From positions 2,514 through 66,513 of the forward strand of contig DASZLX010000022.1 of NCBI GenBank assembly GCA_035552155.1: a DNA stretch of 64,000 bases, in the 5' to 3' direction. Below the pieces are notes generated by a model. The model was given only the letters and a program-made list of their open reading frames with translations, made no database searches and had not been told where the DNA came from. Of this stretch, positions 15,117-40,515 are shown piece after piece. Position 1 is the first letter of the stretch. Every line of letters begins with the position of its first letter. Both the position numbers and the translations under genes were made by a program. Origin of the DNA: Verrucomicrobiia bacterium. Lineage in GTDB: Bacteria > Verrucomicrobiota > Verrucomicrobiia > Limisphaerales > DASXHY01.

Positions 15117-15215
15117 AATGGGTGAATCACGGAGGCAGTCACCGTGAATTGCCACACGCGGCTACGGATTTGGAATCGAGAGTCGGAATCGAATCACTCT
15201 CAAATTTCGAACGAC

Positions 15216-15570: not shown

Positions 15571-15605
15571 TGTTCAAAATTCTTCGCCGAATAGAATTGC
15601 AAGAC
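15571..15605 (+). promoter_or_regulatory. Copy 1 of a conserved 35-bp upstream element (TGTTCAA-N4-CTTCGCCGAA-N-AGAATTGCAAGAC)
   Basis: The sequence TGTTCAAAATTCTTCGCCGAATAGAATTGCAAGAC lies 128 nt upstream of the prepilin-like gene, in the gene's orientation. Confidence 0.5.
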
Positions 15606-15733
15606 TGTCGCTCGCCATCATGCGAAATTTCTATCATGAAGCACGACTGCGACAACAGCATCGTTGCACCGGCAACCGCCGGTCTGCGGCCCAGGCCACC
15701 CATTGATTCACAACCCCCTGTTTCAGCCATCGA

Positions 15734-16657: not shown

Positions 16658-16691
16658 CGTTCGATTTCCAACACCACAAAACCAGCCTCCA

Positions 16692-19643
16692 ATGAAAAAA
16701 GCAAATACACCTCGATCTTTGAATGTGTGGAGCGTCAGCTTGCTCGTACTTGTGCTGATGGGCGTTTCCAATGCTCAAGCGGCGGATTATCAAAGCACCG
16801 TTCTGAACGACACGCCCTTGGCTTATTATCCGTTGAATCTGGATGTCGACACTGGCGCGATCGCCACTGATTTATCGGGCAATAACAATCCCGGCTACTA
16901 CACCAATATTTTTTCAGGCTTTAACAATGCCGTGGGTCCGTCGCCTTATATCACCAATGCGATAAATTTCGATGGCTTGAGCGAATTTGTGGATCTGGGA
17001 AATGGCAGCAATCCCGGACTGTTAAACTTTAGCGGTCCGATCACGATGGAAGCCTGGGTGCAACCAGCTAATCCCAGCCAAAACCTCGGCGACATTCTGG
17101 CCAAAGGCTACTCCCCCACAAATGGAGACGATGAAATTGCACTGCGCCTGAACAGCAGCCGATTCGAGGGTGTTACGTTCAGTGACGCTCGCGGAACGCA
17201 GGGTGCCGTGGGTGGCGTTCCCACCACCGATTGGCAGTACGTTGTCTCCACTTATGACGGCACCAATTGGGACACTTACGTGAACGGACTGCTGGTCGGC
17301 CAAAATAGTGATACCGTCGGTGCAATTAATTTTCCCATTCAATGGCGGATCGGTTCGGGGAGCGATGCGGGTGCGAACCGTTTATTCGCCGGAAATTTGA
17401 GCCAGGTCGCTCTCTATAATCACTCCCTCACTTCCGCGCAGGTCGTCACGCACTACCTCACGGGCGAATACGGCCTGGACGCCAGCACGACGCCGCCCAT
17501 TATCGCCATGGAACCACAATCACAATCGAATTTCATCGGCAGTTCCGTCACTTTCAGCGTCAGTGTCCTGAGCGCATTGCCGACGACGAACCAATGGTTC
17601 AAAGGCAGCAACCCTCTCCTGGGCCAGACCAATGCGACGTTGACATTGACGAACCTTCAGGCCAGCGACGAGGCAAATTACAGCGTCATCGTCGGCAACA
17701 GCAATGGCACGACCAACAGCACTTCAGCCGCATTCACTTTATTGGCTTCCGGAAATTCGCTGCAATGGAGCAGCGCTGACGTAGGCAACAACGGCACGTG
17801 GGATGTTGCGTCCTCGGCGAATTGGATCGATCTCGCGAATAGCCAGCAAACCGTCTTCAATAACGCGGATCAAGTATTGTTTGATGATACAGTTGATGCT
17901 CCGACCGCGGTCACAATTGCTTCAACCGTTTTACCGAGCACCATCACGGTCAATTCGAGCACGAACAATTATACCTTTTCCAGTTCAGGTGCCATCAGCG
18001 GCGGCACAAGCCTGGTTAAAAAAGGGTCGAGCACTTTGACCATCGTCGATCCGGCCAATTTTACGGGCCCGGTGGCAATTAGCGGCGGGACGATTTACGC
18101 GGGCAACAACTCATTCAGGAGCGTGGCATCAGTTACCGTCACCAACAATGCAACCCTGGATTTTGCGGGTGGCACTTATAACAATCTGCCGATCCTTGTT
18201 TCCGGCACCGGTGTGAATGGATTGGGAGCGCTTTTCAACAGCTTTGATGATTTCCCCAGCGAAACGTTGGCCATTACTCTGGCAGGTGACACGGTTTTTG
18301 GCGGCACCAATCGATGGGACTTGTTCGGTTCCATCACCGGGCCGCACAAAATCACTGTCAATTGGAGCGACACCGCCGATGGCAACTACGGCGAATGGAA
18401 CACAATAAACATCGCGACCAACGTCGGTGATATCGAGCTGGCCAACGGCAAGCTTGGCATCAAAAATATGGGGCCGACGTTCGGGAATCCGTCAGCCAAT
18501 TTCATCGTTGATTCCGGAACTGAATTGGATTTTTGGTCGGGCGATGCCGGTTATGCGAGGAATTTTCACGTGTTGAACAACGGCGTGATGCAGATCCTGG
18601 CCGGTTTCACCGATTTCAATGGAAGTCTTACGCTGGAAAACGGAGCTCGCTTCAATGCCTACGGCGCCAGCGGCAATCCCACTGAATCCATCAACGGCGC
18701 CATCACGTTGAATGGCGTCGCGCACATTGTGCTGGGCGACGGCAACTTTTCTTTCACGAACGTCATCAGCGGTCCCGGTGGTTTCGTTTGGGACGCGTAC
18801 AATCATAGCATGATTTTCCAAGCCGCGAACACCTATGCCGGCCCGACTATCATTGCTCAAGGAATGGCCGTGGCATTGAGTGGCAACGGTTCAATCTCCC
18901 ACAGCACACCGATTTTCTTCGGCGGCAGTGATTCGACATCGGTTCATTTCGACGTCTCTGGCCGCGCGGACCAAACGCTGACGCTGGCAAGCGGCCAAAC
19001 GCTGGGCGGTATCGGAGCAATAACAGGAAATCTTGTTGCGTCCGGCGGTTCGATAATCGCACCAGGGGGCACCAATACCACTATTGGAATCACGGTGGGA
19101 GCGAACCCCACCGGCACAATTTCGGTTTCGGGCAACGTCACCCTGGGCGGCACAACCACCATCAAGCTGGACGGTTCTGGTTCGAACGACGTAGTGCAAG
19201 CGGGCGGCAGTATTACCTACGGCGGTACATTGAACCTCGTGAATATCAGTGGCGCGCCTTATTCGGCGGGCGACACCTTCCAGATTTTCAGCGCGTCCAG
19301 TTTCTCGAGTTCCTTTACTCAGGGCATCAACCCGCCAAATCCCGGCGCAGGTCTCGCTTGGGACACCACGCAACTCAACGCGGGCAATATCTCAGTGGTC
19401 ACCGGCACCAGCCAGCCGGTGCTTGGCAACGTGTCTGTCTCCGGTGGAAACATTATTTTCAGCGGATCAAATGGGCCGGCGGGAAGCAATTACGTTGTGC
19501 TGACGTCAACGAACCTCACGACGCCGCTCGCGAATTGGACGCCGGTTTTAACCAACACTTTTGATAGCAACGGTAACTTTCACGTCACGAACGCCATTAA
19601 TCCGGCGGCGCCGCGTGGCTTTTACTTGTTGCAAGTACCATAA
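16692..19643 (+). CDS. Giant secreted LamG / Ig-like / autotransporter-associated beta-strand repeat (PATR) protein
   Basis: Signal peptide, then a LamG block (MEAWVQP...TYVNGLLVG...FAGNLSQVALYN) and an Ig-like module (NATLTLTNLQASDEANYSVIV). PATR-type repeats are present (GTWDV..ANW, LVKKGSSTLTI, GGTIYAGNN). The C-terminus ends in RGFYLLQVP. Confidence 0.8.
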   Translation: MKKANTPRSLNVWSVSLLVLVLMGVSNAQAADYQSTVLNDTPLAYYPLNLDVDTGAIATDLSGNNNPGYYTNIFSGFNNAVGPSPYITNAINFDGLSEFVDLGNGSNPGLLNFSGPITMEAWVQPANPSQNLGDILAKGYSPTNGDDEIALRLNSSRFEGVTFSDARGTQGAVGGVPTTDWQYVVSTYDGTNWDTYVNGLLVGQNSDTVGAINFPIQWRIGSGSDAGANRLFAGNLSQVALYNHSLTSAQVVTHYLTGEYGLDASTTPPIIAMEPQSQSNFIGSSVTFSVSVLSALPTTNQWFKGSNPLLGQTNATLTLTNLQASDEANYSVIVGNSNGTTNSTSAAFTLLASGNSLQWSSADVGNNGTWDVASSANWIDLANSQQTVFNNADQVLFDDTVDAPTAVTIASTVLPSTITVNSSTNNYTFSSSGAISGGTSLVKKGSSTLTIVDPANFTGPVAISGGTIYAGNNSFRSVASVTVTNNATLDFAGGTYNNLPILVSGTGVNGLGALFNSFDDFPSETLAITLAGDTVFGGTNRWDLFGSITGPHKITVNWSDTADGNYGEWNTINIATNVGDIELANGKLGIKNMGPTFGNPSANFIVDSGTELDFWSGDAGYARNFHVLNNGVMQILAGFTDFNGSLTLENGARFNAYGASGNPTESINGAITLNGVAHIVLGDGNFSFTNVISGPGGFVWDAYNHSMIFQAANTYAGPTIIAQGMAVALSGNGSISHSTPIFFGGSDSTSVHFDVSGRADQTLTLASGQTLGGIGAITGNLVASGGSIIAPGGTNTTIGITVGANPTGTISVSGNVTLGGTTTIKLDGSGSNDVVQAGGSITYGGTLNLVNISGAPYSAGDTFQIFSASSFSSSFTQGINPPNPGAGLAWDTTQLNAGNISVVTGTSQPVLGNVSVSGGNIIFSGSNGPAGSNYVVLTSTNLTTPLANWTPVLTNTFDSNGNFHVTNAINPAAPRGFYLLQVP

Positions 19644-19673
19644 CAAGGGCGAAAGAGTTCATTTCGGAATTGC

Positions 19674-20375
19674 ATGAGAATAGTCCTCATCGTGTTCTCG
19701 TTTGCCGCGTTGCTGCTGGCCGCGGCTCACGCCGGGCCGGCTTATCCGCCCGCTGCCGGCCACGAATCGATTGAATGGTGCGACATCTGGGTTTCGCACG
19801 CCAACGAAACCAACCTGCCGCGCGTCCTGCTCATTGGAGATTCTATCACGCGCGATTATTATCCGGGAGTGGAAAAGAGTTTGGAGGGCAAGGCTTACGT
19901 AACACGCCTTGCCACCTCGCGATTTGCCGGCGATCCGGTGCTGCTACAGGAAATCGCGCTTGTTCTGGATAATACCAAATTCGACATCATCCACTTCAAC
20001 AACGGCATGCACGGCTGGCAGCATACGGAGGAGGAATACCGAAAAGCGTTTCCCAATCTCGTAAAGACCATTCGCGTCCAGGCCCCGCACGCAAAATTAA
20101 TCTGGGCTACGACCACTCCGCTAAAAGCCGCCCAACCGCACAGCCCAACCGACCCTTCGGACGACCGGATCGCAGCACGTAATGCCATCGGCCTCGCAGC
20201 CATCCAAGGACAGAATATTGCTGTCGATGATTTGAATGCCCTCGTGCGCGGCCATCCCGAATACCACAGCGACAACGTCCATTTCAATTCACAGGGCATC
20301 CAACTCGAGGCGCAGCAAGTGGCCGCCAGCATCGAGCCGCTTCTGAATCATCAAATCACCGAGGTTCATCGATAA
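19674..20375 (+). CDS. SGNH/GDSL-family hydrolase, secreted
   Basis: Block I VLLIGDSITRDY, block III HFNNGMHG and block V DNVHFN, with an N-terminal signal peptide. Confidence 0.75.
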   Translation: MRIVLIVFSFAALLLAAAHAGPAYPPAAGHESIEWCDIWVSHANETNLPRVLLIGDSITRDYYPGVEKSLEGKAYVTRLATSRFAGDPVLLQEIALVLDNTKFDIIHFNNGMHGWQHTEEEYRKAFPNLVKTIRVQAPHAKLIWATTTPLKAAQPHSPTDPSDDRIAARNAIGLAAIQGQNIAVDDLNALVRGHPEYHSDNVHFNSQGIQLEAQQVAASIEPLLNHQITEVHR

Positions 20376-21162
20376 CCGGATTTGTCAGCGTTCCGATCTT
20401 TTCAATTTCGATGCTGACGGAATCACCGGGCTGCAGCCAGCGCGGAGGCTTCTGCGCCATGCCAACGCCGTGCGGGGTACCGGTCAAAATCACCGTGCCT
20501 GGCAATAACGTGGTGCTGCCGCTCAGAAATTCAATCAACGCCGACACATTGAAAATCATATCGTTCGTATTCCAGTCCTGCATGACCCGGCCACTGACGA
20601 TGGTACGAATCCCCAGAGAGTTTGGGTTTGGAATCTCATCGGCCGTCACCAGCGCGGGCCCAAGCGGACTGAAAGTGTCGAATGTCTTCCCCCGCGACCA
20701 TTGGCCACCGCCGCGTTTGATCTGCCAATCCCGTGCGCTGACGTCATTGCAGCACGTGTAACCCAAAACATAATTCAGCGCGTCGGCGCGATTCACGTTT
20801 TTGCAGCGCCGCCCGATGACAACAGCCAGTTCGCATTCATAATCCACTTCGTCGCTCCGCAAATGCCTCGGAATCTGGATGGGTTCGCCGGGATGCTGCA
20901 GCGTATTGACGCCCTTGAAGAAAACAACCGGATATTCCGGAAAACGCGCGCCGGTTTCCTCCGCATGCTTCCGGTAATTCAGCCCAATGCAGATAATTCC
21001 TGTCGGTTCAATAGGTGCCAGGACCTGCGAAACCTCGGCTTTTTCGGAGGTGGCGCGCAAGCCACTGTAAATGTCTCCCTCAAGTTTCAATGCGAGGCCG
21101 TCTGGCTGCTTGGAGGCGTAGTGAATTCCTCCCAAATTGTCCCGATAACGAATGATTTTCAT
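20356..21162 (-). CDS. Fumarylacetoacetate hydrolase (FAH) family protein; candidate 2,4-diketo-3-deoxy-L-fuconate hydrolase
   Basis: FAH-family motifs GLNYRKHAEE, DYECELAVVIG and GTPHGVG. The ATG at 21162 (MKIIRY...) lies 2 nt after the upstream stop. The function is assigned from operon context. Confidence 0.8.
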   Translation of the reverse strand: MKIIRYRDNLGGIHYASKQPDGLALKLEGDIYSGLRATSEKAEVSQVLAPIEPTGIICIGLNYRKHAEETGARFPEYPVVFFKGVNTLQHPGEPIQIPRHLRSDEVDYECELAVVIGRRCKNVNRADALNYVLGYTCCNDVSARDWQIKRGGGQWSRGKTFDTFSPLGPALVTADEIPNPNSLGIRTIVSGRVMQDWNTNDMIFNVSALIEFLSGSTTLLPGTVILTGTPHGVGMAQKPPRWLQPGDSVSIEIEKIGTLTNPVIDEPR

Positions 21163-28233: not shown

Positions 28234-28944
28234 TTACTTCCTCCGTGAAATCGCAAAGAATATACCCAGTCCGGCCAAAGACAACGCGAAGATCGACGGC
28301 TCAGGTATAAGACTAAGATCGCGGACCTGAAGCAGGTTGAATTGTGCAGAGGGAATTGCCGGCCCGGGCGTGAGAGTTAATGTCTCCGAACTGTCGGTGG
28401 CGACAAATGTTCCGATAACATATTGGCCGGGGCCGCTGTTACCGGAGCCGTAAGCCAGCGAAAGCGAGGTGTTCAGACCGCCCGTCACAGTCTCGGTGCG
28501 CGCATTGACAGTGCTGTTGCGCCCATCATTCACCCATAACTGCACGAGATAACTGTTTCCCACCGTCATGCCGTTCCAACTCACCGTATATGCCCCGGAA
28601 TTGTTCCCAAACGCGCCGGCATTCAGCAGATTGTTGTAGTTATTGTCCGAAGTGCCGGGCGAAGCAAAGGTTCCATTGTTACCACCGTTATCGAAATTGT
28701 CCGCGGCTCCCGGCAAATCCGAAAAGGCTTGGAAGGTCACTCCATTCACCGTCAGTCCGCTGCCCGCATTCCCATTGAACGGAGCCCATGTGCCGAAGAG
28801 AGTTCCCGAGGTATTTACATCCGCAGGCCCAGAGATGGTCAACGGAGTCTGCCAATTGATGTCCGACTGCGCCTGCGCGGCAGCAACGAGAGCAGCCGCG
28901 ATAGACACACCGAGAATACTCTTGCTAAGAGGGTGAATTTTCAT
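28234..28944 (-). CDS. PEP-CTERM sorting-domain secreted protein
   Basis: Signal peptide at the N-terminus. The C-terminus IPEPSIFALSLAGLGIFFAISRRK has PEP, a TM helix and a basic tail. Confidence 0.8.
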   Translation of the reverse strand: MKIHPLSKSILGVSIAAALVAAAQAQSDINWQTPLTISGPADVNTSGTLFGTWAPFNGNAGSGLTVNGVTFQAFSDLPGAADNFDNGGNNGTFASPGTSDNNYNNLLNAGAFGNNSGAYTVSWNGMTVGNSYLVQLWVNDGRNSTVNARTETVTGGLNTSLSLAYGSGNSGPGQYVIGTFVATDSSETLTLTPGPAIPSAQFNLLQVRDLSLIPEPSIFALSLAGLGIFFAISRRK

Positions 28945-29013
28945 TTTTAGAGTGTGGGAATTGTTGTTGGGTTCTAAGGGACTGCCGGTGTTTTAACATA
29001 GCTCCACAGATCG

Positions 29014-29048
29014 CTCTTCCAATTCTCTTCGGCGAAGAAAATTGAACA
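29014..29048 (-). promoter_or_regulatory. Copy 3 of the conserved 35-bp upstream element
   Basis: The reverse complement reads TGTTCAATTTTCTTCGCCGAAGAGAATTGGAAGAG. It lies about 70 nt upstream of the PEP-CTERM gene start. Confidence 0.5.
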
Positions 29049-29081
29049 TGTGGAAAATGAACATGCTGAGTCGCCCAAACG

Positions 29082-29115
29082 CGTTCAATGCCTTTCGCCG
29101 AAAGAATTGCAAGAC
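29082..29115 (+). promoter_or_regulatory. Copy 4 of the conserved upstream element, back-to-back with copy 3
   Basis: The sequence CGTTCAATGCCTTTCGCCGAAAGAATTGCAAGAC lies 33 nt from copy 3 in divergent orientation. Confidence 0.5.
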
Positions 29116-29177
29116 ATGCCCGGTGAGCCTTGTCATCCTGTCACAAATATCATCGCCTTGACCTTTATAATTCCCGT

Positions 29178-29411
29178 ATGAAGCGAAGCGCTGCGAAACT
29201 CCTCAACGAAACCTTGAACGAGGAAAAAGCGGCGGACGACAAGTTGACGGAGATTGCGAAAAACATCGTCAATGCTGAGGGCCCACGAAGCCAATTCCAA
29301 ATAAAATTCGGTTTGGACTTCAATCCGGCTGGCCCACCCAGCCGGATTCTCACCATGAAAGTCTTCACCCTCCATGTGGGCACTCAAATTATACGCGTCA
29401 TTCATTCTTAA
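29178..29411 (+). pseudogene. Fragment resembling the C-terminus of a DUF892 (YciE/YciF ferritin-like) protein
   Basis: AAKLLNETLNEEKAADDKLTEIAKNIVNAEG resembles the conserved C-terminal helix of DUF892 proteins. No upstream part of the domain is present. Confidence 0.3.
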
Positions 29412-29738
29412 TCTTCCAGATCGCCAATTGAGAAATGCTCAATTTGAATGCCAGCAAAAGTGCCGGCAACATCGTTTTGCATGAGTTTTTTCTGATTCGT
29501 CAGTGATTAGTGACTGAGTACTTGGCAGCTTGACGAAACATCGAAAAACGCCCATTCCACTTGCCCCCGTTGCAGCGAAGCTTTGCGGTCTTGTTGTCAC
29601 CCTGTTCAAAAGCCGACACACTTTTTGCCCTCGATATGTCTGGTCGGAACTCGCCAACAAAAATTAACGCTACCCTTTCGCTTTATTTTTCAACCGTTTG
29701 GAAATCCCTTTCCGATTCTCTGGCCCAAAATGGATCCA

Positions 29739-29754
29739 TGGCATGTCCAGTGCT
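29739..29754 (+). promoter_or_regulatory. Sigma-54-type -24/-12 promoter candidate (TGGCAT-N5-GTGCT)
   Basis: Exact GG-N10-GC spacing, about 190 nt upstream of the ureohydrolase ATG. Confidence 0.45.
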
Positions 29755-29942
29755 TGTGAGTCGGCATGGCTGTTTTCATTAAAACCAAATCGTCGCAGAC
29801 GTTTGACGATAGCCATTTCTTCCAGCGCCTCACGCTGATTGACATCTGCTGCGGACCTCCCATCCGGTCCTGAGCCCACCAGCGCGTTCCGGTTCTACGG
29901 AACCTATGTCTCCAGAAATTAACCGTCCGTAATTTTGTACTT

Positions 29943-31439
29943 ATGGGTTTTGGTCATTCACATCCTAAACGTATTCGCAGAGTCCGTTCAGTCACTAAAG
30001 CAGCGCAACACGATCTGGCGCACACCGAAGGCAAAGAACATCACGATGTTCCCGGCCATGCGTTCAATCCTGGCGTGCATCACCACGCCGATAAGCCCGG
30101 TGCGCAAAGCAAATATCACTCGCCGCCCGCCGGTGAAAACTGGCCGCCCTTTCCAGATCTGCCGAGTTCGCATCATCCGCACCCGGAACATCCCGAGGGC
30201 TATCCCTGGAAACCGGTGCAACACGCGGATTACGGCGAAGTCGGCCACGTGCCGCCCGGGCACGCGCATCCGGAAATTTTTGATCCCGCCGTTCGCCAGG
30301 GCGCGTGGGCGAAATATCGCGAAGCCGAACTCGGCTCCAAGGGATGGAAGGAGGAAGTCGAGCGCTGCATTGAATTCGGCCTCGAAGCCGCGCCTTCGAT
30401 CAAAGATCGCACGATCTCGACATTCGCTCGCGGCGAATTGCCGCACTTCGCCGGCATCAACACGTTTTGCAAAACGCATTACCTCGAAGACGTCAAAAAG
30501 GTTTCCGGCTTTGATGCCGCGGTCATCGGTGTGCCATTTGATATTGGCACCACGTATCGCAGCGGCACGCGTTTCGGCCCGCAAGCCATTCGCCGCATCT
30601 CGGCGCTTTACGGCACTTATAATTATGAACTCGGTGTTGACCTGCGCGAATCACTGAAGTGGTGCGACGTCGGCGACGTGTTCGCCATTGCGAACATCGA
30701 AAAGGGTTTCGACCAAATCTCCAAAGCCGTCGCGCACGTGCGCTCCAACGGCGTGTTTCCCATCATGCTGGGTGGCGATCATTCGATTGGTTATCCCGAT
30801 GTGCGCGGCATCGCGCCTTACATCGATGGCCCGGTCGGGATTATCCATATCGATCGTCACGTGGACACGCAGGAAACGGACATGGATGAACGCATGCACA
30901 CGTGTCCGTGGTTCCATGCCACGAATATTCCGAACGCGCCGCCGGTTAATCTCGTGCAACTCGGCATCGGCGGCTGGCAGGCGCCACGGCCGGGTGTAAA
31001 AGTCGGCCGCTCGCGCGGCACCAGTGTGCTCACCATTGAAGACATCGTGATGATGGGTGTCGATAAGGCCGCTGAAATCGCGCTCGACATCGCCTGGAGC
31101 AATGGCGCGAAAGCCGTTTATCTCAGCTTCGACGTGGATTCGCTGGACGCCGGCTTCGTTCCCGGCACCGGCTGGCCGGAACCGGGCGGCTTCCTCCCGC
31201 GTGAAGTCTTGCGCTTGCTGCGCCTCGTCGCCCGCGAAGGTTTATGCGGAATGGAAGTCGTTGAAGTCGCTCCACAATACGACGTGGGCGACAAAACCGC
31301 GCTAATCGGCACGCGTGCCATCATGGACGTGCTCGCGACGCTGGTTAACGAAGGCAAGCTCGGCAAAAAACCGGAAACCAAATTGCCACCGCCCCCGTAT
31401 TGGCCGGAGCGCCGGAAGAAGAATACTAAAAAGAAATAA
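29943..31439 (+). CDS. Arginase/agmatinase-family ureohydrolase with a histidine-rich N-terminal extension of about 165 aa
   Basis: Ureohydrolase motifs GGDHSIGYP, IIHIDRHVDTQ, SFDVDSLDAGFVPGTGWPEPGGF and VEVAPQYD. There are 19 His in the first 110 residues (counted), and a lysine-rich C-terminal tail. Confidence 0.85.
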   Translation: MGFGHSHPKRIRRVRSVTKAAQHDLAHTEGKEHHDVPGHAFNPGVHHHADKPGAQSKYHSPPAGENWPPFPDLPSSHHPHPEHPEGYPWKPVQHADYGEVGHVPPGHAHPEIFDPAVRQGAWAKYREAELGSKGWKEEVERCIEFGLEAAPSIKDRTISTFARGELPHFAGINTFCKTHYLEDVKKVSGFDAAVIGVPFDIGTTYRSGTRFGPQAIRRISALYGTYNYELGVDLRESLKWCDVGDVFAIANIEKGFDQISKAVAHVRSNGVFPIMLGGDHSIGYPDVRGIAPYIDGPVGIIHIDRHVDTQETDMDERMHTCPWFHATNIPNAPPVNLVQLGIGGWQAPRPGVKVGRSRGTSVLTIEDIVMMGVDKAAEIALDIAWSNGAKAVYLSFDVDSLDAGFVPGTGWPEPGGFLPREVLRLLRLVAREGLCGMEVVEVAPQYDVGDKTALIGTRAIMDVLATLVNEGKLGKKPETKLPPPPYWPERRKKNTKKK

Positions 31440-31521: not shown

Positions 31522-32493
31522 ATGAAACTTAAAAAACTATTGGCAGCGGGACTCCTCGGGCTAATGAGTCTGAGCGCGGTCACTGCGGCGCCCATTAAAA
31601 TCGGTTACAGTGATTGGCCGGGATTCACCGTGCTCGAAGTGGCCAAGCAAAAGGGTTGGTTCAAGGAGGCCGGACTCGACGTGGAACTCGTCTGGTTTGA
31701 ATATTCGCCATCCATTGATGCTTTTGCGGCGGGGAAAATCGATGGCGTCACGATTGTCGCCGGTGATGATATGGTGACGGGCGCCAGCGGCGCCAAAAGC
31801 AAAATCGTTTGCCTCATCGATTACAGTGAAGGCAGCGATATGATTATCGGCGCGCCCGGCGTCGAATCCATCCATGATTTAAAAGGAAAAAAAGTGGGCA
31901 TTGAACTCACACTGGTGGAACACGAACTCCTCCTGCAGGCGCTCAAAGCCAACGGCATGAGCCAATCCGATGTGACACTCGTGGGAACTTCCACCGACAA
32001 AACGCCCCAAGCGCTTGCCTCGGGACAGGTTTCGGCCATTGGCGCCTGGTACCCGGTTTCCGGTCAGGCCCTGAAAACTGTTCCCGGCTCCAAAAAATTA
32101 TTCACCAGCGCGGATGCCAAGGGACTCATCTTCGACGTCATCGCCGTGAACCCGACCAGTTACGCGCAGCACAAAGAAGATTGGGCGAAGATCACCGCCA
32201 TATATTATAAATGCGTGGATTACCTAAAGGACCCGAAGACGATGGATGACGCCGTTAAGATCATGGCCGCCAAAGTCGGAGCGGACCCGGCTGAATACGC
32301 CAAGAACATTCCCGGCACGCATTTCCTCACGTTGGCGGAAGCCAAGGCTGCTTTGAAGAAGAGCCATGAGATGTCGTCCCTCTACGGTTCAATGGAGATG
32401 AGCGACAAATTCTATCTCGAAAACAAAGTCTATAAAGATTCGCAAAAGCCCTCGGATTACGTTGTGCCGGGAATCGTCAATGGCTTGAAATAG
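31522..32493 (+). CDS. ABC transporter substrate-binding protein, NitT/TauT (NMT1/THI5-like) family
   Basis: Signal peptide MKLKKLLAAGLLGLMSLSAVTA, then IKIGYSDWPGFTVLEVAKQKGWFKEAGLDVELVWF. An AAGGAAA ribosome-binding sequence lies upstream of the ATG at 31522. Confidence 0.8.
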   Translation: MKLKKLLAAGLLGLMSLSAVTAAPIKIGYSDWPGFTVLEVAKQKGWFKEAGLDVELVWFEYSPSIDAFAAGKIDGVTIVAGDDMVTGASGAKSKIVCLIDYSEGSDMIIGAPGVESIHDLKGKKVGIELTLVEHELLLQALKANGMSQSDVTLVGTSTDKTPQALASGQVSAIGAWYPVSGQALKTVPGSKKLFTSADAKGLIFDVIAVNPTSYAQHKEDWAKITAIYYKCVDYLKDPKTMDDAVKIMAAKVGADPAEYAKNIPGTHFLTLAEAKAALKKSHEMSSLYGSMEMSDKFYLENKVYKDSQKPSDYVVPGIVNGLK

Positions 32494-32535
32494 TTATTCC
32501 CATGTAGCGGGGGTCTGTGACCGCCATCATAAACT

Positions 32536-33621
32536 ATGGCACACCACGATTGGCTCGGACTAAAAAACGAATTGCCGCATCGGCGGAAGATTCTGCTCAC
32601 GGTGCTGTCGTTCCTCGTCCCGCTCGCGTTGTGGTGTGCCATTAGTTATATCCCGAGCCTCTGGCATCCGTTGGTGCACGTGACGAATGTCGGCAGCGTC
32701 GACTACTTCGTAACGGGTATGGATGTGCCGCGCGCGACTTTCGATCAGGAAGTGGCGAAAGCGCTCGCGGCCGGCCAGGAAGTGCCACAGGGTTATCTCG
32801 TCAATCCCGTTTACCTTCCCGCCCCCCACAAAGTCGCGCGCGCGTTTTACACCGCGTTCAAAACACCGCCCCGATTGCAAAATGAACCATGGCTTCACGA
32901 AAGCCTCGGCCACAGCATTCGCACAATTTTTCTTGGCTTCGTTATTTCGTCCATCTTCGGGTTGCCGTTGGGAATTTTATGCGGGTCTTATCGCTTTTTC
33001 GCAAAACTGCAGGAACCGTTCATTGAATTTTTTCGCTATCTCCCCGCGCCCGCGTTTGGCGCGTTGTGTGTGGCCATTCTCGGAATCGACGATGCTCCGA
33101 AAATCGCGATCATTTTCATCGGCACATTTTTTCAACAAGTCCTCGTCATCGGCAACACGGTCCGCAAAGTGGACCCGGCGTTGCTTGAAGCCGCGCAGAC
33201 ACTCGGAGCTCGTGGTCTCCGCCTCATGACCCATGTCATCATTCCCGCGTCTATTACGGACATTTACACCGACATGCGCATCCTGTTGGGTTGGGCTTGG
33301 ACGTATCTGATCGTCGCGGAAGTTGTGGGCACCATGTCCGGCATCACGCTCTTCATTAATCAACAGGCGCGCTATCGGAATTTCGACAATGTCTATGCGG
33401 CCATCGCCATGATCGGGATCATCGGTCTCTCCACTGACATGTTCCTCGCGTGGCTCGGCAACGTTCTATTTCCGTGGAAACGTCCGGCGCGCGCCGGTTC
33501 AACAAAGCGCACGCGGCTGAGAAAACTTTCACCGAAATCTCCTGTGCTGGAAATCCCGGACACACCCCCGGTCAAAATCGTGGAAGAAAAACCTACCGTC
33601 GAATTGAATGCCGCTCAGTGA
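32536..33621 (+). CDS. ABC transporter permease, NitT/TauT family, with extended N- and C-termini
   Basis: BPD-transporter EAA-like region LLEAAQTLGARGLRLMTHVIIPAS. 361 aa. Confidence 0.85.
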   Translation: MAHHDWLGLKNELPHRRKILLTVLSFLVPLALWCAISYIPSLWHPLVHVTNVGSVDYFVTGMDVPRATFDQEVAKALAAGQEVPQGYLVNPVYLPAPHKVARAFYTAFKTPPRLQNEPWLHESLGHSIRTIFLGFVISSIFGLPLGILCGSYRFFAKLQEPFIEFFRYLPAPAFGALCVAILGIDDAPKIAIIFIGTFFQQVLVIGNTVRKVDPALLEAAQTLGARGLRLMTHVIIPASITDIYTDMRILLGWAWTYLIVAEVVGTMSGITLFINQQARYRNFDNVYAAIAMIGIIGLSTDMFLAWLGNVLFPWKRPARAGSTKRTRLRKLSPKSPVLEIPDTPPVKIVEEKPTVELNAAQ

Positions 33622-34507
33622 ACTAAAACTTCCCGATTACCGCGAGCAATCGCCGGCCGTCGCCGCGCGATTCGAGCGCATCCGCCAGCGCAAAGTCATC
33701 CTCAGCGTGCGCGGGCTGAAGAAATGTTTTGGCCCGAACGGCAACACCCACGTCGTTTTCGAAAACGTCTCGCTGGATATTCATCGCCGCGAATTCATTT
33801 GCGTTGTCGGCGCATCGGGTTGCGGCAAATCCACGCTGGCACGCATCGTAGCCGGCCTGGACGAAGCCACTGCCGGAAAGATTTTGCTCAACGAAAAACC
33901 AGTGAACGGCCCTGGTCCGGACCGTGGGATGGTGTTTCAAGGTTACACTTTGTTCCCATGGCTCTCGGTGTGCAGCAATGTCATGTTCGGCCTGAAAATG
34001 CATGGCAAAGACGATAATACTGCCAAGGCCGAGGCGCGCCAATGGCTCGACATGGTCGGTTTGTCGAAATTTGAAAATTCGTATCCGCATGAACTTTCCG
34101 GTGGCATGAAACAACGTGTGGCCATCGCCCGCGCGCTCGCGAACAACCCACGCATCCTCATCATGGATGAACCCTTCGCGGCGCTCGACGCGCAAACGCG
34201 CTGCCAGATGCAATCGTACCTCCTCCAGATTTGGAAAAAGATCGATGCTACCATTTTGTTCATTACACATGACCTCGACGAGGCGGCGTACCTTTCAGAT
34301 CGCATCCTCGTGATGGGCGCAAATCCCGGCCGTGTGGTTGAGTTTATCGAAAACCCTGTTTCGCGCCCGCGCAGCAATGCGCAGTTTCTTTCGCCGGAGT
34401 TTTTGGCGCTGAAAAAGCGGCTCGAGGAACACATTCATCCGCCTATGGAAGTCGCTGAGAAATTGCCGATGATCAAACTCACGGAGGCTGGCGATGAAGT
34501 TGAATAA
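33608..34507 (+). CDS. ABC transporter ATP-binding protein, NitT/TauT family
   Basis: Walker A GASGCGKST, signature LSGGMKQRVAIARAL and Walker B ILIMDEPFAALD. It overlaps the permease gene by 14 nt. Confidence 0.9.
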   Translation: MPLSELKLPDYREQSPAVAARFERIRQRKVILSVRGLKKCFGPNGNTHVVFENVSLDIHRREFICVVGASGCGKSTLARIVAGLDEATAGKILLNEKPVNGPGPDRGMVFQGYTLFPWLSVCSNVMFGLKMHGKDDNTAKAEARQWLDMVGLSKFENSYPHELSGGMKQRVAIARALANNPRILIMDEPFAALDAQTRCQMQSYLLQIWKKIDATILFITHDLDEAAYLSDRILVMGANPGRVVEFIENPVSRPRSNAQFLSPEFLALKKRLEEHIHPPMEVAEKLPMIKLTEAGDEVE

Positions 34508-34907
34508 TCCCGGCAGCACCGGCATCCCGCTGGCCCGTATCCTTCCAACTGTTTTTCGCTGGCTCAGCACCATTCTTTTTATTTCCGCGATTGGCACGAT
34601 GCTGACGCTGCTGGGGTCCGACGCATTGAATGCGCTCACGTTCACCACGGTACACCGTCACGCAGGAGCATTGTCGTTCATGTTGATCGGCTCGTCCTAC
34701 GTCGTATTGCAAATCAGTTTGCGACGGCCTCGGAGCGAAAAGTTGAAGGCGATTATGATCGGAATGGCTTTTCTTTTTTGGGGCTCGGAACAATTCCTCC
34801 CGCCCAGCCTGTTTGCGACCGCAATGGATACCGCCGTCGTCGTCATTTTCGTAGTCGATTTAAGCCTGATAATCATTGAACATCTAAAACGTAATCATTA
34901 TGAGTAA
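34494..34907 (+). CDS. Small integral membrane protein (about 4 TM), unknown function
   Basis: 137 aa with four hydrophobic segments. A GGAGG sequence lies 7 nt upstream of the ATG. It overlaps both neighbouring genes (14 nt and 8 nt). Confidence 0.55.
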   Translation: MKLNNPGSTGIPLARILPTVFRWLSTILFISAIGTMLTLLGSDALNALTFTTVHRHAGALSFMLIGSSYVVLQISLRRPRSEKLKAIMIGMAFLFWGSEQFLPPSLFATAMDTAVVVIFVVDLSLIIIEHLKRNHYE

Positions 34908-35610: not shown

Positions 35611-36462
35611 GTGAAGCTTTCGGAAAACAATTTCAAAATCGCGCCGAACACAAAAGGCTGTGCGCATCTGGAAGTTGAAATGGTGTTTGGTGAAAGCACG
35701 GCCACGTCCTCATCTGCGACCAGTCCGCTGAAACTTCTCACACCCTGCTCGCGCGGCAAAAGTGTATGGGCTTATGCGAGCAATTTCGGCGGCGGACTCG
35801 TCGCCGGTGACGAAACGCAACTGGATCTGCGCATCGGCACTGAAGCACGTTGCTTTTTCGGCACGCAGGCATCGACCAAAGTTTACCGCAACCCCGCACA
35901 ACTCCCTTGTTCGCACACCACCCGGGCGAGGTTGGAGAGTGGCTCTCTGCTCGTTTTTGCCCCGGATGCAATCCAGGCCTTTGCCGGCTCAAGCTACCGT
36001 CAACGCCAGGAATTTCATCTCCCTGACGACGCGGGATTGGTTCTGGTGGACTGGTTCACTGCCGGCCGGGCTGCTCGCGGCGAACGCTGGGCCTTCGACA
36101 ATTTTCAAAGCCGCAATGATGTCTTCATTGATGAACGTTGCGTGTTTGTCGACTCCATCCTGTTGAATCCTGACGCCGGCGCAATGGCATCGCCACATCG
36201 CGTCGGACGCTTCAATTGTTTTGCAATGCTCCTTCTTATCGGCGCACCGATGCGCGAAGCCGCGACGCACCTGATAACCGAAATTTCGTCGCGCCCGGTT
36301 GAACGCAATACGATGCTCCTGCGCAGCGCCAGCCCCGTCCAGGACGGCGTTGTATTACGCGCCGCCGGCGAAGATGTCGAGAGCGTCAGTCGCGAACTGA
36401 AAAACCACTTAGCTTTCCTCGCCGCTTTTCTTGGCGACGATCCCTGGGCCAGAAAATGGTAG
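35611..36462 (+). CDS. ureD: Urease accessory protein UreD (UreH)
   Basis: UreD-like pattern: GGGLVAGDETQLDLRIGTEARCFFGTQASTKVYR and LVDWFTAGR. GTG start. Position is consistent with the urease operon. Confidence 0.8.
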   Translation: MKLSENNFKIAPNTKGCAHLEVEMVFGESTATSSSATSPLKLLTPCSRGKSVWAYASNFGGGLVAGDETQLDLRIGTEARCFFGTQASTKVYRNPAQLPCSHTTRARLESGSLLVFAPDAIQAFAGSSYRQRQEFHLPDDAGLVLVDWFTAGRAARGERWAFDNFQSRNDVFIDERCVFVDSILLNPDAGAMASPHRVGRFNCFAMLLLIGAPMREAATHLITEISSRPVERNTMLLRSASPVQDGVVLRAAGEDVESVSRELKNHLAFLAAFLGDDPWARKW

Positions 36463-36498
36463 TCACCATTTAACTCATTTAACAAAGTTAACGAACCC

Positions 36499-37254
36499 AT
36501 GCACCTGACCCCTCGCGAAATCGAAAAGTTGATGTTGCACAACGCGGGTTTTCTCGCGCAGAAACGCCTTGCGCGCGGTCTGCGCCTGAATCATCCGGAG
36601 GCGGTCGCGCTGATTGCCGCGCAATTACTTGAGTTTATCCGCGATGGCAAGAGCGTGGCGGAACTTATGAACCTTGGCCGCAAGTTTCTCGGACGAAACC
36701 AGGTGATGTCAGGTGTGCCGGAAATGATCCACGACGTGCAGGTGGAAGGCACCTTTCCCGACGGCTCCAAACTCGTCACCGTGCACCACCCCATCGCGAG
36801 TGAAAACGGCGATCTTGCGCTGGCGCTGCGAGGAAGCTTTCTTCCCGCGCCGAACGTTTCCATTTTCAATTCCGTTGCCGACGAGGGCGAACCCGGTGCA
36901 GTGAAAGCGCGCGACGGCGAAATCCAACTGAACGCTGGCCGCCAGACCGCCGAAGTGCGTGTGACGAATCTCGGCGATCGCCCCATCCAGGTCGGCAGCC
37001 ACTATCATTTTATTGAAACAAATGCCGCGTTGAAATTCGACCGTGGCGCAGCTTACGGGAAACGTTTGGACATTCCCGCCGGGACTGCGGTGCGATTCGA
37101 GCCTGGCGAAACCAAAACCGTCCGGCTCGTCGACATCGCCGGCAAAAAAGTCATTCGCGGTGGAAATAATTTGGCGAACGGAAAAGTGTCTGCTGCGGGA
37201 AAGAAGGCGGCATTGAAAAAAGTGAGGGCAAAAAATTTCGCAAACAGAGATTAA
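36499..37254 (+). CDS. ureAB: Urease gamma-beta fusion subunit (UreAB)
   Basis: N-terminal [39 protein letters not shown] (gamma). C-terminal [19 protein letters not shown]...[16 protein letters not shown] (beta). Confidence 0.9.
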
Positions 37255-37327
37255 TGCGCTACAGGAACTGGGACTGGGCGGCGATTTCTCTGCGCCTTCT
37301 GTGTCCCTGTGGCAAAAATAAATTGTT

Positions 37328-39043
37328 ATGTCCCATAAAATGAAACGCCGGCATTACGCCGATATGTTCGGGCCGACAACGGGCGATAAAGTCCGCCTCG
37401 GCGATACGTCGCTGATTCTCGAAGTGGAAAAGGATTTCACCGTTTATGGCGATGAATGCAAATTCGGCGGCGGCAAGGTTATTCGCGAAGGCATGGGGCA
37501 GGCCGCTGGCGTCGGCGACAAAGACGCGCTCGACTGCGTCATCACGAACGCGTTAGTCGTTGATTGGAGCGGCATTTACAAGGCCGATATCGGCATCAAA
37601 AACGGCCTCATCAGCGGTATCGGCAAAGCCGGAAATCCCGATGTCATGGCTCGCGTGACCAAAAACATGATTATCGGTGTCACCACCGAAGTCATTGCGG
37701 GTGAGGGATTGATTCTGACCGCGGGCGGACTCGATACACATATTCATTTCATTTGTCCGCAACAGGCGCACGAAGCAATCGCCGCCGGCCTGACTACCAT
37801 GGTTGGCGGCGGCACCGGTCCTGCAGTCGGAACCTGCGCGACTACTTGCACGCCCGGTTCATTCAACATGCGCATGATGCTCCGCGCCGTGGATGATTTG
37901 CCGCTCAATTTCGGATTCACCGGCAAGGGAAATACCGCCATGCCCGCCGGGTTGCTCGAACAAATCCAGGCCGGGGCTATCGGTCTGAAACTCCACGAAG
38001 ATTGGGGCACCACCCCAGCTGCCATTGACTGCTGCCTTGGCATCGCCGACGAAACCGACACGCAAGTCACGATTCACACCGATACTTTGAACGAGTCCAC
38101 TTTCGTCGAGGGCACCATTGCCGCGTTCAAAGGCCGCACGATTCACACGTATCATTCGGAAGGCGCGGGCGGCGGACACGCGCCGGATATCATCCGCATT
38201 TGCGGCGAAGCGAATGTTCTCCCGAGCTCCACCAATCCCACGCGTCCGTATACCGTCAACACCATCGACGAACATCTCGATATGTTGATGGTCTGTCATC
38301 ATCTCGACCCGAATTTGCCGGAGGATGTGGCGTTTGCCGAAAGCCGCATCCGGGGTGAGACCATTGCTGCCGAGGACATCCTGCACGATCTCGGCGCCAT
38401 CAGCATGATGAGTTCGGATTCGCAAGCCATGGGACGCATCGGCGAAGTCATTACGCGCTCGTGGCAAACCGCCGATAAGATGAAAAAGCAGCGCGGCCGT
38501 TTGCCCGGCGAAAAAGGTGACAACGATAATCTCCGCATCAAACGTTACCTCTCGAAATACACCATCAACCCTGCGCTTGCGCACGGAATGGGACATCTCA
38601 TCGGCTCAATCGAAGTCGGCAAACTCGCGGACCTCGTGTTGTGGAAGCCCGCGTTTTTCGGCGCCAAGCCGGAGATGGTCATCAAAGGCGGCGTCATTGC
38701 CTGGGCGCAAATGGGCGACCCCAACGCCAGCATTCCAACACCGCAACCGGTTTTCATGCGCCCGATGTTCGGCAGCTTCGGCAAAGCGACCGGCCCGTGC
38801 TCCGTCGCCTTCGTAAGCCAGCTTTGCAAAAGCAAAAACATTGCAAAAAATTACGGCCTCACCAAACGCATCGCGGCCGTGAAGGGCTGCCGCAAAATGA
38901 CCAAGCGCGATTTAAAATGGAACAACGCGCTCCCGAAGATAACCGTAGATCCAGAGACCTACGAAGTTCGTGCCGATGGCGAATTGCTGACGTGCGAACC
39001 GGCGAAACTGCTGCCACTCGCGCAACGCTACTACCTTTTCTGA
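37328..39043 (+). CDS. ureC: Urease alpha subunit
   Basis: 571 aa. Canonical motifs: [51 protein letters not shown] and MVCHHL. Confidence 0.95.
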
Positions 39044-39052
39044 CGGTGAGAA

Positions 39053-39144
39053 CGAATGGTAACATGCCGAATGCCGAATGCCGAATGGCGGATGATACCA
39101 CCCACCGGGTCGATTCTCCATTCGTCATTCGTCATTCGTCATTC
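39053..39144 (+). repeat. Inverted pair of heptanucleotide tandem repeats: (ATGCCGA)x3 and (TCATTCG)x3
   Basis: 39064-39088 can pair with 39118-39142. That gives 7 perfect bp, then 6 of 7 per unit, with a 29-nt loop. The 5' arm contains ATGs at 39064, 39071, 39078, 39085 and 39092. Confidence 0.7.
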
Positions 39145-39783
39145 AATCAATGGCTCCTGTGGCAACTCGTCGATTCCGCGTTTCCAGCCGGCGGCTTCGC
39201 TCATTCCGCGGGGCTCGAAGCCGCATGGCAACATGGCGAGGTAAAAAATCGCGGCGATCTGATTTCCTGTGTCGAAGCCGGTCTTCATCAACTCGGCCAC
39301 ACCGCGCTGCCATTCGTGAACGCCGCACATAGGGAGCCTGAGCGGTTGGAGGAATTGGATCATCTCTGCAATGCGTTCACGACCAATCACGTGGCGAATC
39401 GTGCCAGCCGCGCGCAAGGTAAAGCTTTTTTGACAGCGGCGCAGCGCGTCTTTGCCGCTGGCCGCCAACATCCGGCTTTGCCGTTTCATCATTTCCCGTG
39501 TGCTTTCGGGGCCGCCTTGAGATGGCTCGATGCTCCGAAAGAGACAACAATGCGCCTGTTTTTCTTCAACCATCTTCGCGGCATGATGGCCGCAGCCGTT
39601 CGCTTGAATATCGTCGGCCCCATGGAAGCGCAGACCATTCAACACCACCTGGCCTCAACTGCCGAACACGTTTTGAAACAATGCGCTTCACTCACGCTCG
39701 ACGATATCGCCCAGACCTCGCCACTGCTGGATTTATGGCAAGGCGCGCAGGACCGGCTTTACTCGCGGCTCTTCCAAAGTTGA
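39064..39783 (+). CDS. ureF: Urease accessory protein UreF
   Basis: LLWQLVDSAFPAGGFAHSAGLE UreF signature. In-frame starts lie at 39064 or 39085. The longer ORF-track version overlaps ureC and is rejected. Confidence 0.85.
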   Translation: MPNAECRMADDTTHRVDSPFVIRHSSFNQWLLWQLVDSAFPAGGFAHSAGLEAAWQHGEVKNRGDLISCVEAGLHQLGHTALPFVNAAHREPERLEELDHLCNAFTTNHVANRASRAQGKAFLTAAQRVFAAGRQHPALPFHHFPCAFGAALRWLDAPKETTMRLFFFNHLRGMMAAAVRLNIVGPMEAQTIQHHLASTAEHVLKQCASLTLDDIAQTSPLLDLWQGAQDRLYSRLFQS

Positions 39784-39786
39784 TTT

Positions 39787-40515
39787 ATGAGACTGCTCCT
39801 TCACTTTCATTCCCACGGCGGAAATGGCCATTCGCATCCGGACACTCCCGGCCATTTCCACGATCGCGACCTTCCTCACGACCGCGATTTCAATCAGCGC
39901 GCGTTCACTGTGGGAGTCGGTGGCCCAGTCGGCAGCGGCAAGACGGCATTGATGCTTCAATTGTGCAAACGTCTGCGCGAAACCCGGAGCATCGCCGCTG
40001 TCACCAATGATATTTTTACAAAGGAAGACGGCGAGTTTTTAACCAGGCATCAAGCGCTCGAAGCCGATCGCATCCGCGCTGTTGAAACCGGCGGCTGCCC
40101 GCACGCCGCCATTCGCGAGGACATTTCCTCAAACCTCCTTGCGCTGGAGGAGTTGCATCAAAAATTTCATCCCGACATTCTTCTCATCGAATCCGGCGGT
40201 GACAATCTGGCTGCCTGCTTCAGCCGTGAACTGGCCGATTACACCATCCAGGTGATCGACGTCGCCGGCGGTGATAAAATCCCCCGCAAAGGCGGCCCGG
40301 GAATTACTCAAACCGATTTGTTGGTGATCAATAAAACCGATCTCGCCCAGGCCGTGGGCGCGGATTTAAAAGTAATGGAGCGCGACACAAAAAAAATGCG
40401 CGGCGACGGACCGTTTGTTTTCGCGCAGGTCAAGCACGGCGTCGGCGTGGATGAAATCGTGCAGCAGATTCTTCATCAATGGCAGCATGCGCGCGGCATA
40501 GGACACAAGCATTGA
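39787..40515 (+). CDS. ureG: Urease accessory GTPase UreG with a His-rich N-terminus
   Basis: P-loop [11 protein letters not shown] and the conserved VETGGCPH and ESGGDNL motifs. There are 8 His in the first 31 residues (counted). Confidence 0.95.

Follow-up and report, generated by a model that had tools for sequence, protein, structure and literature searches.

The gdmH locus and the enzyme it encodes

The stretch of DNA analysed here (64,000 nucleotides, hereafter the window) derives from a Verrucomicrobiia bacterium (GenBank assembly GCA_035552155.1, contig DASZLX010000022.1) and contains a gdmH-type guanidine hydrolase gene that lies behind a promoter-like element and a small leader open reading frame (ORF) and ahead of genes for an ATP-binding cassette (ABC) importer, two membrane proteins and a urease system (Table 1). 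The product of gdmH, hereafter the hydrolase, carries a His/Pro-rich insertion between its first seven residues and the enzyme core. This insertion, which sequence evolution marks as a translated part of the enzyme and for which a role in nickel capture appears plausible, is the main subject of our analysis.

A Pfam search recognised the arginase-fold domain PF00491 at residues 191-463 of the hydrolase (E 3.4e-73), and the NCBIfam agmatinase models scored it under their cut-offs. The best PDB matches were Synechocystis Sll1077/GdmH (7ESR/7OI1, E 8.9e-154) and the guanidinase of Nitrospira inopinata (9FEK, E 6.1e-153), both with approximately 70% identity in the core, followed by agmatinases, guanidinobutyrase and metformin hydrolase at E 1e-45 or weaker. 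The residues Thr105, His222 and Trp313 (N. inopinata numbering), described by Palatinszky et al. as guanidinase-defining (PMC11410670), align to T204, H319 and W411 of the hydrolase, and the ligands of the dinuclear metal site (H280, D304, H306, D308, D397 and D399) are invariant in an alignment of 66 sequences. Taken together, PDB similarity, marker residues and metal ligands led to the conclusion that the protein is a GdmH-type guanidinase by every sequence criterion tested, for which the family would predict nickel dependence and guanidine as the substrate. An earlier note on this DNA, written from its letters alone, had treated the enzyme as a Ni-dependent guanidine hydrolase, in line with this assignment. 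It had also let the catalytic core begin at about residue 165, which needs correction: similarity to the characterised guanidinases sets in at about residue 113-121, the Pfam arginase domain follows at 191, and the alignments to 7ESR/7OI1 and 9FEK span query residues 121-123 to about 476 and include the N-terminal helices of the family, to whose own N-terminal region helices 119-129 and 133-146 belong.

Recounting residues 1-110 gave 19 His (positions 5, 7, 23, 27, 33, 34, 39, 46-48, 59, 77, 78, 80, 83, 94, 102, 107 and 109), the number reported before, together with 18 Pro, 11 Gly and no Cys, and every cluster quoted in the earlier note (GHSHP, KEHHD, VHHHAD, SSHHPHPEHPEG and GHVPPGHAHP) is present. 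Residues 121-497 (377 residues) contain 8 His only. Given a His frequency of 2.42% in the 45 gene-like ORFs of the window, the binomial probability of at least 19 His among 110 residues is 2.2e-11, and residues 1-110 show the highest His density of all 110-residue stretches in the window; the second and fourth ranks are taken by a membrane protein with a His-rich loop and by UreG, both encoded in the same operon. The insertion contains a basic patch (RRVRS), AQHDLAH, HHD..GH, HHH, a variable 15-residue sub-insert (DKPGAQSKYHSPPAG...) that occurs in only part of the extension-bearing clade, LPSSHHPHPEHPEGYPW, and PPGHAHPE. A Sec or Tat signal peptide was considered on account of the RR in RRVRS, taking a hydrophobic h-region after a basic n-region and the Tat consensus S/T-R-R-x-F-L-K as criteria, and inspection of residues 1-40 (RRVRSVTKAAQHDLAH) revealed no hydrophobic stretch.

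Translation and selection of the His-rich segment

A protein search retrieved 16 extension-bearing clusters at 78-92% identity, two of which are damaged (P0015 lacks the N-terminus and P0016 is frameshifted near the C-terminus), and a genome scan with one genome per species yielded 18 extension-bearing loci. All of the latter belong to metagenome-assembled genomes (MAGs) of Verrucomicrobiota (Verrucomicrobiia, Chthoniobacterales, Pedosphaera, "Spartobacteria"); one extension-bearing bin labelled Methylomirabilota is probably a binning error. In a codon alignment of 17 intact extension-bearing genes, the proportion of differing synonymous sites (pS) was 0.68, which is near saturation, and that of nonsynonymous sites (pN) 0.18, with a median ratio of nonsynonymous to synonymous substitution rates (dN/dS) of 0.145 in the extension, 0.045 in the core and about 0.26 in the C-terminal tail. 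Indel lengths are always multiples of three, and all genes (17/17) share the ATG and the first seven residues without exception (ATG-GGN-TTY-GGN-CAY-TCN-CAY). At least 16 of the 17 sequences have His at positions 5, 7, 23, 27, 33, 39, 46, 47, 48, 77, 78, 80, 83, 94, 107 and 109, i.e. 14 positions in the insert plus H5 and H7, and invariant non-His residues comprise RRVRS, AQ.DLA, P69, L73-P74, P79, G86, W89, G101, P104, P110-E111 and FDPA. The alignment of orthologues proposed in the earlier note thus finds an extension that is conserved in sequence, with 16 fixed His and several non-His motifs, and not in composition alone.

The reading frame was compared in four close relatives, where pN/pS amounted to 0.16 in the His-rich frame and to 2.0 and 3.6 in the other two. 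The Arg-rich +1 ORF (29935..30657), with the value of 2.0 and closed early in two of the four relatives, is therefore confirmed as a shadow ORF, and the His-rich frame, translated from ATG 29943, as the real one; codon-level selection and the invariant start bear out what the earlier note had assumed for both. Relatives have in-frame stops 3-222 nt before the ATG, which rules out an earlier start of the ORF. A true start further downstream, which would turn the His-rich frame into an untranslated leader outside the protein, could draw on the lack of a Shine-Dalgarno sequence before ATG 29943 and on GTG codons at residues 45, 92 and 103. However, dN/dS values of 0.145-0.16 from codon 1 onwards at saturated synonymous sites, the retention of the ATG and the MGFGHSH codons, the restriction of indels to multiples of three, the non-coding alternative frames and the short homologues that open with the same N-terminal motif speak against it, and we regard this possibility as hardly credible. 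A mis-called start is essentially excluded on these comparisons, and the His-rich segment is, as far as sequence evolution can tell, translated and under purifying selection.

Origin and predicted structure of the insertion

Short homologues of approximately 380-390 residues, found in Paenibacillus, many Bacillales, Kyrpidia, Thermogemmatispora, Abditibacterium and Thermoleophilaceae, start with MGFFDNHG, MGFYHHHG, MSFYHNHG, MGIFHDEGFH or MGMFHDHG and continue with F(N/D)xEDLxGxxAAxxE about 20 residues past this motif. The verrucomicrobial proteins start with MGFGHSH, and the core resumes with FDPAxRQGAWAKxRE at residue 113. From the shared start motif and the resumed family sequence it follows that about 90-105 His-rich residues were inserted here, as opposed to being added as a simple prefix. 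The N-terminal extension described in the earlier note is thereby upheld as extra His-rich material, but it lies at residues 8-112, behind a conserved seven-residue N-terminus. In a maximum-likelihood tree of the core, all 15 extension-bearing sequences (15/15) fall into a single clade with 100/100 support, which indicates that the insert arose once. Internal repeats of note were found in the insert neither at the DNA nor at the peptide level, which leaves no evidence for an origin by tandem duplication.

A Pfam search with the insert alone (E <= 10) returned, as its best hit, a meaningless match to DUF4633 (E 0.23), and a profile of the insert run against 1.84 billion representative proteins found seven matches, all of them truncated or frameshifted copies of the same N-terminus. 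Neither search revealed homology to a described His-rich domain family, and the profile search found the module on no other protein family among these representatives, so that the module appears private to this enzyme clade.

An AlphaFold2 monomer model was built from the 66-sequence alignment. The predicted local distance difference test (pLDDT) score is 31-48 for residues 1-80 and stays below 50 to about residue 88, with a weak helix at 19-28 only, reaches 55-75 at residues 80-120 and is followed by a confident arginase fold with the usual dips at metal-binding loops. Based on the low pLDDT, the insert is predicted to be disordered when metal-free, and the structure prediction suggested in the earlier note thus points to disorder of residues 1-88; the last third of the insert may pack against the core or an adjacent subunit. 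The C-terminal tail, in which a Lys/Arg-rich end follows LPPPPYWP, was modelled without secondary structure. It is common to the extension-bearing clade and absent from short homologues; the co-occurrence of KLPPPPYWPERR plus Lys-rich end with the N-terminal insert was noted as a separate observation, and the tail might mediate membrane or partner binding.

These features bear on a second explanation, according to which the insert is a docking or regulatory disordered region whose RRVRS, LPSSHHPHP and GYPW motifs, perhaps together with the Lys-rich C-tail, recruit a partner or hold the hexamer together by wrapping around adjacent subunits. Candidates for docking would be UreG/UreD/UreF, the His-loop permease, urease (with urea channelling as the purpose) or the membrane. 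The conserved non-His residues, the partial packing suggested by the pLDDT of 55-75 at residues 80-120 and the co-occurrence of insert and basic C-terminal tail in the clade are in keeping with such a role. So is the precedent of 9FEK, in which a 14-residue N-terminal extension relative to the cyanobacterial enzyme contacts the neighbouring subunit and stabilises the quaternary structure (PMC11410670). Unlike the segment described here, with about 105 residues, 17% His and predicted disorder, the 9FEK extension is described as structural and without reported His-richness. Docking would leave the 17% His content unexplained, no partner was identified, and the urease linkage is not particular to the extension-bearing clade; overall we consider it unlikely. 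Far less probable still is that the insert acts as a pH- or metal-responsive autoregulator in which His protonation or metal occupancy gates activity. The side-chain pKa of His lies near physiological pH, and the conversion of guanidine to urea and NH3 is established to raise the pH, but this idea is purely speculative and the AlphaFold2 model predicts no structural contact with the active site.

HypA/HypB-like helpers and N-terminal His motifs

In Synechocystis, gdmH is co-transcribed with the genes for GhaA/GhaB, HypA/HypB-like nickel-delivery proteins that are required for activity (PMC12186494; PMC12704784). Using four HypA and three HypB sequences from other gdmH loci as tblastn seeds, we obtained UreG as the sole match in the window, where scanning for ORFs of HypA type with paired CxxC motifs was negative as well; both searches are consistent with the statement in the earlier note that no such helper is encoded in the window. 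Nor did tblastn detect HypA/HypB at the 18 genome loci that bear the extension (10-kb flanks) or in approximately 0.42 Mb of metagenome loci holding 18 more extension-bearing copies.

His clusters of varying size recur at GdmH N-termini, for example MGFFDNHG, MGFYHHHG, MGGNHHHHRR and MHDHPHAHLHG. As a side observation, short clusters were seen in homologues of several phyla, with MGESHEGRHGHHHH and MGFFHRHDH among the further variants (P0019, P0026, P0070, P0081, P0085, P0105, P0049, P0029 and the MGFFDNHG group, L017-L074). No HypA/HypB appeared within 10 kb at about 75 loci whose gdmH encodes either the long insert or an N-terminal His motif, among them P0026 (MGGNHHNHEH), P0081 (MGGNHHHRR), P0050 (MSFYHNHG), P0087 (MSFFHNHG) and about 55 loci of the MGFFDNHG group, and gdmH genes with short His clusters often stand beside NikMNQO-type or other transporters. 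Four homologues without N-terminal His motif were sampled (P0115, P0064, P0097 and P0108), which span two separate clades: each carries PF01155 HypA directly downstream (4/4), and three also have a HypB-type cobW gene.

At the level of gene content and sequence, this comparative pattern fits a helper-replacing role. The N-terminal His tag looks like a recurrent feature of the family in lineages without adjacent hypA/hypB, and variable His clusters at this position are the pattern expected of a metal-acquisition tag. With no HypA/HypB nearby and HypA beside 4/4 His-less homologues, a built-in nickel-capture role of the insert is plausible.

Gene neighbourhood

The features at the locus are summarised in Table 1.

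Table 1. Features of the gdmH locus; coordinates are positions in the window.
Feature	Position	Strand	Remarks
Sigma-54-type -24/-12 promoter-like element	29739..29753	+	TGGCATGTCCAGTGC (GG-N10-GC); nearly invariant in 7 aligned relatives
35-codon leader ORF	29766..29873	+	MAVFIKTKSSQTFDDSHFFQRLTLIDICCGPPIRS-stop; ends 69 nt before the gdmH ATG
gdmH-type guanidine hydrolase gene	29943..31439	+	498 codons + stop, ATG start
N-terminal motif MGFGHSH, residues 1-7	29943..29963	+	Family-wide; invariant in 17 extension-bearing sequences
His/Pro-rich insertion, residues 8-112	29964..30278	+	Contains 17 of the gene's 19 N-terminal His
GdmH core, residues 113-476	30279..31370	+	Family N-terminal helices and arginase fold
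Clade-specific C-terminal tail	31371..31436	+	KPETKLPPPPYWPERRKKNTKKK; PPPPYW motif and Lys/Arg-rich end
NMT1-type ABC importer (binding protein, permease, ATPase)	31522..34507	+	Pfam NMT1, BPD_transp_1, ABC_tran
137-residue membrane protein, no recognised family	34494..34907	+	Overlaps both flanking genes; no Pfam/NCBIfam match
234-residue membrane protein with His-rich loop	34900..35604	+	HTHTHAHEGESHEHIHIHG...HVHTH; weak PF13386 DsbD_2 match
ureD, fused ureAB, ureC, ureF, ureG	35611..40515	+	Pfam UreD, Urease_gamma+beta, Urease_alpha, UreF, cobW

The NMT1-type importer genes adjoin gdmH in most relatives, and an importer of the same type, gimABC, has been described beside gdmH in Synechocystis (PMC12704784). 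The 137-residue membrane protein has copies with 78-79% identity directly before the gene for the His-loop protein in L003 and L004. The His-loop protein itself, with 15 His within one 110-residue stretch, is kept in L003, L004 and L013, in the last directly before urease genes, and is a candidate Ni2+ permease, with nickel as its presumed cargo. No ureE was found in the urease operon (35611..40515). The N-terminus of UreG is rich in His (10 in residues 1-35, 39787-39891, forward strand), and its C-terminus has GIGHKH; UreG shares the pentapeptide GHSHP with the hydrolase N-terminus, possibly by coincidence. No ureG follows ureF within the L021 locus, and no UreG match was obtained in the other extension-bearing loci (10-kb flanks). 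The earlier note had raised a possible link between the extension and the UreDFG machinery. Urease genes accompany short gdmH forms too, so their presence beside gdmH does not single out the extension-bearing clade. The gene content of the operon suggests a logic of guanidine import, conversion to urea and urea hydrolysis, with two nickel enzymes and one putative nickel importer. An Rfam match to 5_ureB_sRNA (92.8 bits, 37482-37774, reverse strand), antisense within ureC, most likely reflects conserved urease coding sequence rather than a small RNA gene in this phylum.

Several arrangements at other gdmH loci were also recorded. In L003, a close verrucomicrobial relative (11673-20868), and in the unrelated contig L078 (44-5465), creatininase-family, glutamine-synthetase-like, polysaccharide-deacetylase-like, Rieske oxygenase and FGE-sulfatase-like genes lie inside the gdmH/ABC cluster; these extra genes, which the window lacks, suggest a wider catabolism of guanidino compounds of the creatinine or methylguanidine type. 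A conserved trio is located 3' of gdmH in Kyrpidia, Thermogemmatispora and a Firmicutes contig (L080 11156-14615, L082 11215-14588 and L084 11332-14685) and consists of a 316-residue protein without Pfam match (its Kyrpidia and Thermogemmatispora versions are 77% identical), an amino-acid permease and a 246-248-residue protein without Pfam match, which could be alternative accessory or transport partners. Directly upstream of gdmH in a Ktedonobacteraceae MAG (L030, 2892-4250), an ORF of 452 residues combines a UreG-like GTPase domain with an unrecognised C-terminal domain of approximately 200 residues. Finally, a tandem pair of arginase-family genes in L081 (10001-13362) is flanked by HupE/UreJ upstream and by HypA and HypB downstream and could, by analogy, represent a heteromeric Ni-ureohydrolase arrangement like that of metformin hydrolase.

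The leader peptide upstream of gdmH

The leader ORF begins 12 nt past the sigma-54-type element, which we take as a putative promoter, and its start at 29766 may be leaderless. Its C-terminus reads ...FFQRLTLIDICCGPP followed by about three residues and the stop (FFQRLTLIDICCGPPxxx-stop). The leader frame has a pN/pS of 0.37 versus 0.6-1.5 in the other five frames, and 7 loci preserve both its start and its stop. Among 19 extension-bearing loci, 17 retain the ending T(L/M)x(D/V)(I/V)CCGPP despite synonymous changes in its codons, and there the leader lies 68-159 nt before gdmH. Overall, the leader was seen in L001-L014, L016 and L019 and in 66 small ORFs from metagenomes (L086-L165), and its motif is absent from the short-type gdmH loci examined. 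A minus-strand ORF of 69 residues (29670..29879) was rejected as the cause of the conservation, as it contains stops in relatives and has a pN/pS of 0.83.

The metagenome scan was run with the codons of the leader motif and gave 82 matches in the best 80 loci of 103 matching stretches; 66 of the 82 matches listed are leader-like small ORFs. All of these (66/66) have a TGGCAY-N5/6-TGC element at most 160 nt upstream. The gene behind the leader belongs to the creatininase family in 34 cases and is gdmH with the His-rich insert in 18; the remainder comprise an NMT1-type ABC binding protein (L086), an FGE-sulfatase-like gene (L124 and L153), a gene of no recognised family (L122) and 10 cases of a contig end or unknown gene. 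Exactly three residues separate CCGPP from the stop in 42 of the 52 leaders that precede gdmH or creatininase-family genes, and there are two contigs with a pair of leaders.

In its xGPP ending the leader is similar to the ribosome-arrest motifs RAPP/RGPP (PMC10951233, PMC12992588), with Cys-Cys where those have Arg. We found no alignable or covarying helix that would indicate a conserved RNA structure between leader ORF and gdmH, and the fold z-score of this region is only -1.4. A small hairpin (GUUCCG-GUUCUA-CGGAAC, 29886-29903, forward strand) was observed between the leader stop and the gdmH start, and relatives have different hairpins of non-alignable sequence at a similar place. The leader may act in ribosome arrest or attenuation as a peptide of a kind not described before, and with its upstream element it seems to form a control module, likewise undescribed, for a set of verrucomicrobial nitrogen-scavenging genes.

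A possible nickel-capture arm on a client enzyme

The locus shares with that of Synechocystis sp. PCC 6803 a GdmH with the same metal ligands and guanidinase markers (approximately 70% identity to Sll1077 over residues 123-475), a linked NMT1-type ABC importer and a urea product that feeds urease. In contrast to the hydrolase, Sll1077 aligns from its residue 18 only and has no His-rich insert. The Synechocystis gdmH is co-transcribed with ghaA/ghaB behind a guanidine riboswitch, whereas the window lacks ghaAB and its gdmH follows the sigma-54-type promoter-like element and the leader peptide; no Rfam match to a guanidine riboswitch reached the gathering score in the window, and none appeared at E <= 1 in 28900-30100.

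His-rich regions related to nickel are familiar from the N-terminus of HypB (e.g. in Bradyrhizobium), the C-termini of Klebsiella UreE, SlyD and HspA, the N-termini of plant and some bacterial UreG proteins, and Helicobacter Hpn. Like these, the insert is Cys-free, His-dense, apparently flexible and borne by a protein of nickel metabolism. The described regions of HypB, UreE, SlyD, UreG and Hpn are, however, located on chaperones or stores and not on the client enzyme, and the strong non-His motifs set the insert further apart. By analogy, the nearest functional counterpart may be the periplasmic Cu,Zn superoxide dismutase of Haemophilus and Actinobacillus, a client metalloenzyme with a His-rich N-terminal extension as its own metal-capture arm, in a different enzyme, with a different metal, in another compartment and with a much shorter arm. 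GdmH was first described in 2022, and to our knowledge its nickel acquisition is understood only for the cyanobacterial case of GhaA/GhaB. A full-text literature search retrieved no paper joining histidine-rich with guanidinase. The enzyme belongs to a known family, and what is unusual is a long, sequence-conserved His-rich segment on the client enzyme itself.

In the explanation that we favour, and to which we give about an even chance, the insert is a tethered Ni2+ capture and hand-over arm for GdmH. About 90-105 His/Pro-rich residues were inserted once, between MGFGHSH and the first helix, in a clade of soil Verrucomicrobiota, and would represent an elaborated form of the family-wide N-terminal His tag. 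They would bind several Ni2+ ions and raise the local nickel supply at the dinuclear site of the same or a neighbouring subunit in the hexamer, and the arm would do in cis part of the job that adjacent GhaA/GhaB perform in cyanobacteria and some other lineages. The operon would import guanidine, and probably nickel, and then hydrolyse the urea product of the reaction (guanidine -> urea + NH3). Metal binding, nickel specificity and a role in metallation are what we infer for the insert from a His density well beyond chance expectation in an operon that also encodes a putative Ni permease and a His-rich UreG, and from the combination of a UreE-less urease system, a UreG with its own His-rich N-terminus and a gdmH operon without GhaA/GhaB.

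Several points weigh against this explanation. A strict rule by which an N-terminal His motif and HypA exclude each other had to be rejected, because P0080 and P0112 have neither a His motif nor a HypA nearby, and the observed anticorrelation rests on few independent clades of the core tree. The absence of helpers covers the window and the 10-kb flanks, and other parts of the genome could contain hypA/hypB. Klebsiella UreE can do without its His-rich tail in urease activation, and in some HypB proteins the His stretch reportedly functions chiefly in nickel storage. Finally, with many conserved non-His residues (RRVRS, LPSS, GYPW, PPG), a dedicated partner or a defined fold seems likelier than an unspecific chelating tail.

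The dispensable UreE tails also speak for another possibility, namely that the insert is a store or buffer of nickel or another divalent metal, or a protection against nickel excess brought in by the co-encoded permease, that takes no part in loading the GdmH site. Its composition resembles that of known storage proteins such as Hpn and of some HypB His stretches, and its high His density stands beside a putative Ni permease. For a store, however, composition alone would suffice, yet 16 His as well as Pro, Trp, Tyr and Gly positions are fixed, and the module occupies a fixed place in one enzyme and was found on no other protein among the representatives searched; we therefore rate storage as improbable, though worth keeping in mind.

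The capture arm can also be extended to a bolder version, which we put forward tentatively and regard as rather doubtful. Here the insert would be a self-contained nickel metallochaperone fused to its client, which receives Ni2+ from the His-loop permease or from UreG and loads the GdmH site without a GTPase-driven helper of the HypA/HypB type, and which, together with the sigma-54/CCGPP leader module, would define a distinct verrucomicrobial mode of guanidine/creatinine-type nitrogen scavenging.

Irrespective of the mechanism, a clade-wide, selected, enzyme-borne His-rich module is documented here, and His clusters recur at GdmH N-termini in lineages without adjacent helpers, which gives the nickel-enzyme field a direct handle on helper-independent metallation. 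This bears on the heterologous expression of guanidinases in ethylene- or guanidine-producing cyanobacteria and in wastewater uses, where an enzyme would be simpler to transplant if it proved self-loading. The leader peptide may represent a new regulatory class for nitrogen-scavenging genes in a poorly studied, abundant soil phylum, and the fusion of a metallochaperone to its client, if true, would constitute a new, helper-independent route of nickel-enzyme maturation.

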